A stretch of 64,000 bases of DNA from Candidatus Bathyarchaeia archaeon (GTDB lineage: Archaea > Thermoproteota > Bathyarchaeia > 40CM-2-53-6): contig JBEKFP010000001.1 in NCBI GenBank assembly GCA_050013255.1, positions 640,001-704,000 of the forward strand, read 5' to 3'. Made by a program: the position numbers and the translations under genes. The notes under the pieces were generated by a model that did not search any database, had not been told where the DNA came from, and was given only the letters and a program-made list of their open reading frames with translations. This document shows positions 27,616 through 45,901 of the stretch, in pieces (the first letter of the stretch is position 1; each line of letters starts with the position of its first letter).

Positions 27616-28545
27616 TCACGCATTGAACGTTTTAGTTTCCGTTGACGCTATCGCCGCCAAACTGTCGCTCTTCCACGCCCATGCCACATCGCTAAAGAAA
27701 AAATCTGGAGCACTGAAGATCGAGTTCAGAGATTTGCCGTTCCAGAAGAAGACCATTCCCTTAGCCATTCCAACCTGCGCGGTTGCCGTCACAATTGCCG
27801 CGATGTCGGCCGAGGGCTTCCAAGCGACGGCGACTGGGTAGACGTGCTTATTCTCGAACGGGACGGGTGAAACGGTCGTCCCGTTGAAATCGCCAATAAA
27901 CCCAGTATGCCAAACAACATCATACCCCACAACCAACGCCGACTCTCCAGTCCGCATCCAATCTACGCCGATAAGGTCCAGGCGTCCCTCGTTCAATGGT
28001 CTTACGATGCCCGTTTCAGCCTCGTAACTGAAGAGGTTAGGTGATGGGATGAATTCCTCGGCAAAGCAGTTGGATGAAATTAATGCGCTGCCGGATTTTG
28101 GCCGCCACGAAATATCCCGCAGATTCGCCCTTCCCGCGTCCACCATCACAACCTGTCCGTTTGTGAACTTGAACAAGGTCCCGTTATTACCGGCAAGAAG
28201 GGCCACGGAGCCATCATGGTTCCACGCCACCGTGCGGAGGTTTTCGAAGGTGGGCACCGTTATCTTCGTAAACCGTTCTCCGTCGAGAAGCAAAACTGTC
28301 CCAGCGTTACCAACAATTAACGCCGTTCCATCCGTGGGATTCACGGATACAGCCCTGAGGTTATGCCGCGTCCCAGAATCAATAGAAATAGGCCTGTCGC
28401 CCTGAACCTTTAGAACTCGGCCACCGTTGCCCACAATGATCGGAAACCGGTCCTGTCGGTCCCAAGCGAGCCCTCGAAGATGGCCCTGCAGGTTTACGGT
28501 ATGCAGGTCTTTCCCGTCGTAATAGAGCAGCTTCGAGGCCAACAA
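27616..28545 (-). CDS. Beta-propeller repeat protein
   Basis: Repeats of NLR.V.W.......L.VGN.G. Confidence 0.75.
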   Translation of the reverse strand: MLASKLLYYDGKDLHTVNLQGHLRGLAWDRQDRFPIIVGNGGRVLKVQGDRPISIDSGTRHNLRAVSVNPTDGTALIVGNAGTVLLLDGERFTKITVPTFENLRTVAWNHDGSVALLAGNNGTLFKFTNGQVVMVDAGRANLRDISWRPKSGSALISSNCFAEEFIPSPNLFSYEAETGIVRPLNEGRLDLIGVDWMRTGESALVVGYDVVWHTGFIGDFNGTTVSPVPFENKHVYPVAVAWKPSADIAAIVTATAQVGMAKGMVFFWNGKSLNSIFSAPDFFFSDVAWAWKSDSLAAIASTETKTFNA

Positions 28546-28603
28546 ATCACAACCAAGGTGCGCTGCTTCTCTCGCTCAGCCCAAGAGTAGATTTGAAAGC
28601 AAT

Positions 28604-28959
28604 AGTTCTGTTAACTTGCCGGCCCATTGGTTTCACCAATCTCTCATCCCTAAAGGTTAGAGGTGCCGGTAAGGAGCCTTGTCATCAGTTGATGAAGACT
28701 GCTCATTAGGTGATATGTGGGTTCTAAACCCGAAAGCTGAGCGGTCCGATGTTGGGTAAAGGTTGCTCCGACCAAGCGTAAAACCCTGACTTGCGAAGGG
28801 TCTAGCTGGCTTCGTGAATGCGAAGCGAGAGCCGTGAGGTTCGCGGCCGTCGCGTCTGCAACTGAAGCGATGGTACAGGAACCGCTGACTGAGCGCAATC
28901 CTGAAAGTCGATGCAGATGAGTTGACTCGGAAGCCAAGAGCCGAAGAGTTAACAGAACC
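28604..28959. mobile_element. Non-autonomous IS6-like mini-element 1 (356 bp, structured non-coding interior)
   Basis: Terminal IRs (A)GTTCTGTTAACT / AGTTAACAGAACC; flanking direct repeat AAAGCAAT at 28596-28603 and 28960-28967. Confidence 0.8.
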
Positions 28960-28974
28960 AAAGCAATATTAAGA

Positions 28975-29337
28975 ATGGGACAAGTGCCCCGCAACATGCC
29001 CAGGATCAAAACTCGGAGTTCACGAACCGTTCAATTGTATTCTGAACGGCACATCAACAATGAACGGGACCTCCTAGACTTCATAGAAGCGCTGGACGAG
29101 GATGAAGGGGTTAGAATCGAAGGAAACATCAAGAACCATGAAAACGGCGGCTTCGTATTCGTCGGAACCTACAGGGGCAGCTACTGCGTCAACATATGCG
29201 ACAAGGTGTGGGCCCCAAAGCTGAGACAGTACGTACCCGGCGGAAGAGATGAGTGGTACTACTTCGACAAGGGCAAAGAAGCATTCCGCTTCGTCTTGAA
29301 AGAAGCAAAAAGGCCCCTACGAGCTTGGCTATACTAG
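28975..29337 (+). CDS. Hypothetical protein
   Basis: Protein-like composition; start probably ATG 28996. Confidence 0.7.
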   Translation: MGQVPRNMPRIKTRSSRTVQLYSERHINNERDLLDFIEALDEDEGVRIEGNIKNHENGGFVFVGTYRGSYCVNICDKVWAPKLRQYVPGGRDEWYYFDKGKEAFRFVLKEAKRPLRAWLY

Positions 29338-41795: not shown

Positions 41796-42240
41796 GGTTC
41801 TGTTAAGAACTAGCGTGTTGGTTGACCGTTAAGCATCGGGGTGTTGAGGGTATCATGTCTCAAGTTCCGTTGTATAAGGCTCTGTCAAAAATCGAAGGGT
41901 TCGGAGCGTTTGCCTCACGGCGAATAGAGAAAGAATCTCAAATTGCGGTTTGGGATGGACCTTATGCCCACGAACTGCCGAATGATGCTTCTGCGAAATA
42001 CTACTTGTATGTTAGACCGCATGTATATCTCGTAGGCTTCGGTGGGGATTACCCCGAATCTTTCATCAATCATTCCTGCAATCCGAATAGCAAAATCGTT
42101 TGGAACGGTGATATAGCGATTCTTGTTGCAATACGTGATATTGAACAGAACGAAGAGGTTACATTCGATTATGGGTCTGCAAGTTCATTATCGCCCGAGG
42201 GTTAGCAAGGATACCGAACACCCATCAACTTAACAGACCC
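41796..42240. mobile_element. Non-autonomous IS6-like cassette 2 (445 bp) carrying a SET gene
   Basis: IRs GGTTCTGTTAAG / CTTAACAGACCC; exact 8-bp duplication CAAAAGTG at 41788-41795 and 42241-42248. Confidence 0.85.
41822..42205 (+). CDS. SET-domain protein-lysine methyltransferase (likely ATG 41855)
   Basis: SKIEGFGAFA, FINHSCNPN, EEVTFDYG; no post-SET cysteines. Confidence 0.85.
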   Translation: MTVKHRGVEGIMSQVPLYKALSKIEGFGAFASRRIEKESQIAVWDGPYAHELPNDASAKYYLYVRPHVYLVGFGGDYPESFINHSCNPNSKIVWNGDIAILVAIRDIEQNEEVTFDYGSASSLSPEG

Positions 42241-45792: not shown

Positions 45793-45901
45793 GGAACTGT
45801 CAAGTTGTCGTCTGCTAATTACTTTCATGCGCCTATTCGCCTAATATGCGGCCGCAACCACAGAGAGAGGAGTCATCAGTCGATGAAGACTTGACAGAAC
45901 C
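45793..45901. mobile_element. Non-autonomous IS6-like mini-element 3 (109 bp)
   Basis: IRs GGAACTGTCAAGT / ACTTGACAGAACC; exact 8-bp duplication CCTAACTC at 45785-45792 and 45902-45909. Confidence 0.85.

Follow-up and report, generated by a model that had tools for sequence, protein, structure and literature searches.

A non-autonomous IS6-type element of a Bathyarchaeia archaeon with a structured RNA whose 3' module resembles a TnpB omega scaffold

In current accounts, TnpB is mainly a homing nuclease that restores IS200/IS605 and IS607 elements after their scarless excision. Gene-less IS200/IS605 elements that bear an omega RNA are described as PATEs (PMC3119063), and the RNAs of such elements must serve TnpB in trans (PMC10055086). 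For DDE transposases with inverted terminal repeats, PMC10691335 describes associated TnpB branches, solo tnpB genes moved in trans among them, and a review (PMC13565253) names ISL2, IS630 and IS1031 as TnpB-linked DDE families and describes the benefit of TnpB to DDE transposons as unclear. IS6 is not named among the TnpB-linked DDE families in the main texts of these two sources. Among the main texts searched, none reports a link between TnpB and IS6-type elements, an omega-only MITE of a DDE transposon or the 5' RNA domain set out below.

The MITE analyzed here occupies positions 28604-28959 (356 bp) of the window, a 64,000-nt stretch (C1:640001-704000) of a 2.46-Mb, 3-contig archaeal genome (G000), and was delimited by direct reading of positions 28300-29300. 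Like the PATEs of Haloquadratum (PMC3119063) and Geobacillus stearothermophilus (PMC10055086), it is a gene-less derivative of a tnpB element that has kept the right end with its scaffold, the transposase and TnpB being encoded elsewhere. PATEs, however, have neither terminal inverted repeats nor a target duplication and are characterized by subterminal palindromes and a Y1 transposase, whereas this MITE has IS6-type repeats, an 8-bp duplication and an extra 149-nt 5' domain, with no Y1 transposase found in the genome, and so falls outside the PATEs as they are defined. As in the DDE-linked TnpB branches (main text of PMC10691335; PMC13565253), tnpB in the elements studied here lies within inverted repeats with its 3' end near the element end, and solo tnpB is found with the ends of transposase-carrying elements.

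In the omega RNA of ISDra2 TnpB (reRNA; PDB 8EXA, 8H1J), too, the scaffold reaches from within the tnpB 3' end to the right end and the guide is drawn from the flank, and in the present RNA a pseudoknot beside the guide may form as well; the RNAs differ in having no detectable sequence similarity and no Rfam model, and in that the candidate target-adjacent motif (TAM) here lies outside an 8-bp duplication that would form the first 8 nt of the guide. Another TnpB-type nuclease within DDE transposons that make target duplications is Fanzor (PMC3627910, PMC13565253); according to the review, the TAM it recognises includes the 5' target duplication, and strict short duplications (TA, TTAA) are made in some host superfamilies (PMC13565253). 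In contrast, the duplication at the present elements is variable, the motif lies just outside it, and the host is archaeal rather than eukaryotic. The ends (of GGTTCTGT / GGCACTGT type), the 8-bp duplications and the DDE_Tnp_IS240 domain are those of the IS6/IS26 family and its MITEs, but the transposases here (376-416 aa) have an N-terminal zinc-binding extension and fall below the NCBIfam IS6 cut-off, and the elements that carry them (2.5-4.7 kb) contain extra ORFs. The element is an unusual variant of the known omega-bearing, gene-less kind, with an RNA domain added in its left half, and not a new RNA class.

Element anatomy, insertion site and family

An initial annotation of the window had described IS6-type ends and an 8-bp duplication, and both were borne out: the terminal repeats AGTTCTGTTAACT and AGTTAACAGAACC are complementary at 12 of 13 positions, AAAGCAAT is repeated exactly, and the site is uninterrupted in two sister species, G014 and G018. 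In G018 the flanks are contiguous around one copy of the 8-mer (...GATTTG AAAGCAAT ATTAAG...), with TTTG followed by 20 nt identical to the right junction (28960-28979) at every position; in G014 they are contiguous around a single AAGGCAGT. BLAST coordinates of the flanks suggest an empty site in G021 too and, less clearly, in G004. The insertion of the MITE into the intergenic site is recent. Coordinates of the features are given in Table 1.

Table 1. Features of the MITE and its junctions, in window positions
Feature	Position	Strand	Description
Candidate TAM TTG	28593-28595	+	Directly 5' of left duplication; shared by the uninterrupted G014 and G018 sites
Left target-site duplication	28596-28603		8 bp, AAAGCAAT; single copy in empty sites
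Left terminal inverted repeat	28604-28616	+	AGTTCTGTTAACT, 13 bp
Left end	28604-28680	+	13-bp inverted repeat and A/T-rich box CTAAAGG (28650-28656)
5' RNA domain	28681-28829	+	149 nt, 8 modelled helices; gene-less elements only (as far as found)
3' RNA module	28830-28959	+	Homologue of tnpB 3' end plus right end, corresponding to the omega RNA scaffold
Hairpin-loop GGUUC	28838-28842	+	Near-invariant; candidate pseudoknot with terminal GAACC (28955-28959)
Right terminal inverted repeat	28947-28959	+	AGTTAACAGAACC; inner part is the last RNA hairpin, GUUGAC / GUUAAC
Right target-site duplication	28960-28967		8 bp, AAAGCAAT; exact repeat of left copy
Predicted guide segment	28960-28979	+	Expected from scaffold position at the element boundary, if transcription passes the right end

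The element lies between divergent genes (27616-28545, minus strand; 28975-29337, plus strand). Only 15 nt separate its right end from the ATG at 28975, and the former upstream region of that gene has been pushed 356 bp further away; as a speculation, read-through from the element may contribute to expression of the 28975-29337 gene. No ORF within the element matched a protein family. The only long one (28650-29009, minus strand) had no Pfam match, and copies of the MITE are separated by frame-breaking indels, in agreement with the earlier view that the interior encodes no credible protein.

The MITE family has at least six copies in the genome, and 14 copies from 10 genomes were aligned. Among the five further copies of the same genome, four have 8-mers of their own, three of them exact (GGAATGTG, CTTAATGC, GGGCTAGG) and one matching at 7 of 8 positions (AATCGAT-); the left end of the copy on contig C3 is not recognisable, and the closest same-genome copy is only 86% identical to the one described here. 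Matches were found in 16 of 60 relatives searched, from three genera of one family, and every aligned copy has its own duplication. Scanning the genome contig collection for an exact 15-mer (GCGTAAAACCCTGAC) returned almost exclusively chance matches in bacteria, the pattern being too short for this collection.

Other elements of related layout were noted in the same and other genomes. A sister MITE (C2:82803-83527; L004:949-1673) has a ~375-bp insert within its 5' RNA domain, after CCGATG. At window positions 45793-45901 there is a 109-bp mini-element (duplication CCTAACTC, TTG just upstream) in which a MITE-family left end, followed by only the first RNA hairpin, is fused to the right inverted repeat, making it a core-deleted copy. 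In G008, a tnpB element has been reduced by deletion to 430 bp (L030:1194-1623; duplication GGCGGGAC, TTA before it); what is left is the coding part for the zinc finger and the C-terminus together with the right end, with no 5' RNA domain. Two IS6-ended elements have different cargo: a 445-bp non-autonomous element (window 41796-42240; ends GGTTCTGTTAAG / CTTAACAGACCC, duplication CAAAAGTG) carries solely a gene for a 127-aa SET-domain protein (PF00856, 53 bits), and a 1659-bp element (C1:1228749-1230407; L016:350-2008; duplication GGGGGTGG) carries a 267-aa ORF with only a weak DUF7310 match, and neither a transposase nor tnpB.

The RNA, its 3' module and its 5' domain

The whole element folded at -142.8 kcal/mol, with a z of -6.25 on the plus strand and -5.5 on the minus strand, values to which the terminal repeats contribute. 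The RNA body alone (28681-28959) folded at -100.1 kcal/mol on the plus strand (z -3.2, 0 of 200 shuffles as good) and at -85.0 kcal/mol on the minus strand (z -2.4). In an unfitted alignment of 14 copies, 95.9% of cells were paired and 27 of 66 pairs showed compensatory changes; covariation was 0.339, as compared with 0.04-0.09 for slid partners, and 0 of 500 shuffles reached the observed value. The many conserved G-U pairs fit the plus strand and would be C-A on the opposite one. By covariation and strand-specific G-U pairs, the cargo is a real structured, non-coding and presumably transcribed RNA on the plus strand, as had been proposed for this copy; its length is ~280 nt.

Several of the stems first drawn for this copy (GCTCA/TGAGC, GGGTT/AACCC, TCTGCA/TGCAGA) are supported by covariation, and others were replaced or dropped. 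The GGCTTCG of a supposed long-range TGGCTTC/GAAGCCA stem instead pairs locally with CGAAGC, which covaries; a helix placed around a GNRA loop is in a different register, the covarying one being GCCGU / GCGGC around the loop GAGGUUC; ACCCT/AGGGT is copy-specific; and CTTGCCGGC/GCCGGTAAG with its inner hairpins belongs to the left end, before the conserved RNA begins, and is not retained in other subfamilies. The helix of the last hairpin covaries with the terminal repeat sequence of other subfamilies (GUCAAG/CUUGAC, GUUACC/GGUAAC).

Rfam returned 0 matches at the gathering score in the window and, at a permissive E of up to 10 (28500-29100), matches at chance level only (best 11.1 bits against a threshold of 49), lending no support to the suggestion of a ribozyme-like cargo; the curated families so covered include ribozymes and group II intron domains. 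A hammerhead or box C/D motif built on UGAUGA near 28690 does not stand: these bases form the 3' side of a hairpin of 5 bp, and most copies have CCGA where the CUGA partner would be needed. A long-range pairing of GGU (columns 85-87) with the terminal ACC, proposed by RNAalifold, was discarded for showing no covariation.

Two 1.26-1.28-kb elements of the same genome (C1:854024-855281 and C2:62149-63427) match the MITE at element positions 1-51 and 224-356. They share its type of ends, are flanked by 8-bp duplications (CGAACGAG/CGAACAAG and CAGGATCT), and each encodes solely one TnpB of ~383 aa (C1 gene at 854101-855249); these are the only two intact tnpB genes in the genome, both residing within IS6-ended, 8-bp-duplicated elements. 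TnpB was identified by the Pfam Cas12f1-like TNB domain, by NCBIfam guided_TnpB (127 bits, cut-off 100), by matches to solved TnpB and Cas12f chains (residues 162-355 against ISDra2, PDB 8EXA and 8H1J) and by the motifs GIDRN, VMEQL, DRDVNAA and two CxxC pairs. The tRNA-like sequence found ~45 nt past the right end of the tnpB element on C1 (about 855330-855440; L010:2800-2900) has an apparent intron.

At its left end (positions 1-51) the MITE matches the tnpB-element left end at 85%. Its 3' 130 nt match tnpB-element right ends at a BLAST identity of 72-81% (76-81% to both same-genome tnpB elements), and matches to positions 224-356 were also found in dozens of tnpB right ends elsewhere. The shared 3' stretch comprises the last ~100 nt of tnpB and the right end. 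When 12 MITEs and 28 tnpB-linked right ends (40 sequences) were aligned, the 3' module had one fold, with 20 of 31 pairs compensatory, 96.4% of cells paired and a covariation of 0.402, against 0.04-0.06 with partners slid. In studied TnpB elements the omega RNA scaffold is encoded at the tnpB 3' end and right end (main text of PMC10691335; PMC13565253). Because of the homology to this region and its position, which is the usual one for the scaffold, the 3' module is classed as a TnpB omega (guide) RNA scaffold, which would bind TnpB and direct DNA cleavage. An RNA that the initial annotation could not place in any known class can thus be placed through its 3' part. The annotation had also proposed that a match of the interior to a decayed transposase would undo its reading; ~100 nt do come from the coding end of the tnpB C-terminus, but TnpB is a nuclease and not a transposase, and the stretch doubles as scaffold.

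Position 28959 is the exact endpoint of both the last helix and the conserved AGAACC, so that the scaffold adjoins the element boundary and the predicted guide is flanking DNA. Pairing between the GGUUC loop and the terminal GAACC is possible in 99% of cells (39 distinct sequences); the columns hardly vary, and covariation is for this reason no test of the candidate pseudoknot. A pseudoknot next to the guide is reportedly seen in the ISDra2 structures, as in TnpB and Cas12 guide RNAs.

The 5' domain (element positions 78-226) has no counterpart in any tnpB element searched, and for this reason the MITE is not a plain deletion derivative. A covariance model of the domain (R1) matched only the six MITE copies in the host genome, none of 100 tnpB loci, none of 24 DDE-transposase or other IS6-ended loci, and 3 genomes, all of the same family, in a class-wide sample of 151. 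Weaker full-length matches in genus g2 (G023, G027) represent a second, diverged MITE group; in the one g2 copy that was read (L076), the 5' domain is joined to an omega-like 3' module in a small non-coding stretch. All copies examined have a 3' module after the 5' domain. Across 25 copies, 91.9% of cells were paired and 27 of 39 pairs were compensatory, numbers that are flattered by an alignment fitted to the model.

In the tnpB elements, an A/T-rich box (CCTAAAAG) precedes the ATG by 24 nt, a spacing that suits a leaderless archaeal mRNA. Of 15 MITE copies, most have an A/T-rich box (TTTAATT, CTAAAGG and similar) ~26-34 nt ahead of the point where conservation starts, at the G of GTCATCAG; in the present copy the CTAAAGG box is 25-31 nt before the conserved RNA, and the MITE left end is otherwise variable among copies. 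The box is likely an archaeal promoter. On this model the RNA would start near 28681 and read past the right end into the flank, where its 3' end would lie.

Flanking motif and candidate transposase

For analysis of the flanks, 31 independent omega-bearing insertions (distinct duplications) were taken from genomes and metagenome contigs and oriented by the RNA; 24 of them are full-length and 7 of MITE size. Upstream of the left duplication, position -1 is a purine in 31/31, position -2 is T in 29/31, and position -3 is T in 22/31 and A in 6/31; the commonest triplets are TTG (13) and TTA (9), giving TTR in 22/31. As a control, 13 DDE-carrying elements (about 12 independent, partly from other lineages) were oriented by their gene, and NTR was present in 3 of them, as compared with 29 of the 31 omega-bearing insertions (Fisher p 6e-6). 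With the right flank as guide, a TAM would have to occupy exactly the place of this motif, the order in an empty allele being TTR, 8-mer, downstream DNA, and the one-sided T-purine fits a TnpB target-adjacent motif. For the present copy, the uninterrupted G018 site has precisely this layout.

The MITE ends GGTTCTGTTAAC / GGTTCTGTCAAG match those (GGTTCTGTCAAA) of a 3139-bp transposase-carrying element (C1:182371-185509; L014:372-3510) with the duplication CGCATCAG. The 416-aa protein that it encodes (C1:183284-184531) combines a zinc-binding region at the N-terminus with a DDE_Tnp_IS240 domain (PF13610, 59.8 bits, cut-off 27), and a second DDE gene is present on C2 (PF13610, 56.1 bits, same cut-off). 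The best NCBIfam family of both proteins is IS6, at 114.8 and 102.1 bits, below the cut-off of 125. Since the ends and the duplication length are shared, and since this is the sole candidate found in the genome, an IS6-like DDE enzyme acting in trans is the likely mover of the MITE. Neither a Y1 transposase nor a serine recombinase was found in the 3-contig genome. No tnpB or omega sequence was detected by BLAST or tblastn within transposase-carrying elements, and tnpB and the DDE gene never occur in one element among the loci examined. The IS6-family enzymes studied so far transpose by replicative cointegrate formation (as IS26), and with such a mode restorative homing after excision may not apply.

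The additional cargo of C1:182371-185509 consists of four ORFs of 92-161 aa with no family matches. In relatives, transposase-carrying elements are 2.5-4.7 kb in length and occur in many copies. The element is found at apparently the same site in three species (duplications CGCATCAG / CGCATTAG).

Proposed mechanism, alternatives and significance

We regard it as most likely, and hold with reasonable though not full confidence, that the element is a non-autonomous IS6-type MITE with a ~280-nt RNA gene whose product reads into the flank and guides TnpB in trans. On this model, the left-end promoter, which would drive a leaderless tnpB mRNA in full-length elements, would drive an RNA from near 28681 in the MITE, and transcription through the right end would give this RNA a terminal guide made up of the duplicated 8 nt and downstream DNA. 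TnpB from the two full-length elements would load the MITE RNA in trans and cut insertion-free alleles at TTR plus target, and repair from the filled copy would spread or retain the MITE. The filled locus would itself be safe, its right junction presenting ACC in place of TTR and its left junction only 8 nt of guide match. Such targeting would explain the T-purine found 5' of fixed omega-bearing insertions and mostly absent from transposase-carrying ones. The TnpB-guide model leaves the 5' domain unaccounted for, and full-length elements do without it.

The flank signal could instead reflect only the insertion preference of a trans-acting transposase, the RNA being no homing guide. DDE transposases often favour palindromic targets, and a mirror YA is enriched on the right flank of the omega-bearing insertions (13/31), so that a palindromic target preference may account for part of the signal; this enrichment is, however, far weaker than the 29/31 on the left, and the transposase-carrying elements show little of either motif (NTR upstream in 3/13, YA downstream in 2/13), which makes preference alone an unlikely explanation. 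The same one-sided TTR, in pointing to use by TnpB, bears on a further reading, in which the 5' domain is the core of the RNA (for processing, stabilisation, self-cleavage or partnership with another protein) and the omega-like part is secondary. That domain is as conserved as the 3' module, covaries, lacks a counterpart in tnpB elements and always directly follows the putative start site, all of which would suit such a role; against it, there is no match to any Rfam family, ribozymes included, and the constant succession of 5' domain and 3' module, with R1 confined to gene-less elements, makes the two look like one unit. We judge a separate function of this kind to be rather improbable.

That the element is an inert relic, a decayed tnpB element whose RNA-like structure was inherited and has no present function, seems to us quite improbable. 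Elements reduced by simple deletion are indeed present (L030:1194-1623, with the tnpB C-terminal part, and window 45793-45901, with only the ends), and the closest same-genome copy is merely 86% identical; yet 96% of pairs are kept in the absence of coding constraint, with 27 pairs compensatory, and the 5' domain is kept in a second, diverged MITE family. Its absence from all 100 tnpB loci searched means that this domain is not a relic of tnpB elements. There is very little to recommend reading the pairings as single-stranded DNA hairpins for transposition, in the manner of IS200/IS605 ends. A Y1 transposase does recognise DNA hairpins of tnpB elements elsewhere (PMC13565253), but no such enzyme was found in this genome, the inverted repeats and duplications are as in double-strand DDE transposition, the opposite strand would have C-A in place of the conserved G-U pairs, and the structure extends over the whole 279 nt and is not limited to subterminal hairpins.

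Returning to the trans-acting TnpB guide, a stronger form of it is put forward tentatively, as a possibility to which we give less than even weight: the ~280-nt RNA is perhaps a composite guide RNA, distinct and self-propagating, made of an omega scaffold and an acquired 149-nt 5' domain, that uses an IS6-like transposase to jump and TnpB to home, both in trans. The 5' domain might enable an RNA acting in trans to compete for TnpB, or might be active in its own right. If the composite reading is true, the one-sided TTR would be the footprint of RNA-guided homing on an archaeal DDE transposon, and TnpB would benefit transposons that lack scarless excision.

The genome thus offers a compact archaeal TnpB with what would be a naturally trans-acting guide RNA bearing an additional RNA domain. 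With tnpB-only and guide-RNA-only elements both riding an IS6-like DDE transposase, the use of TnpB to a DDE transposon becomes testable with one transposase, one TnpB and one 280-nt RNA.
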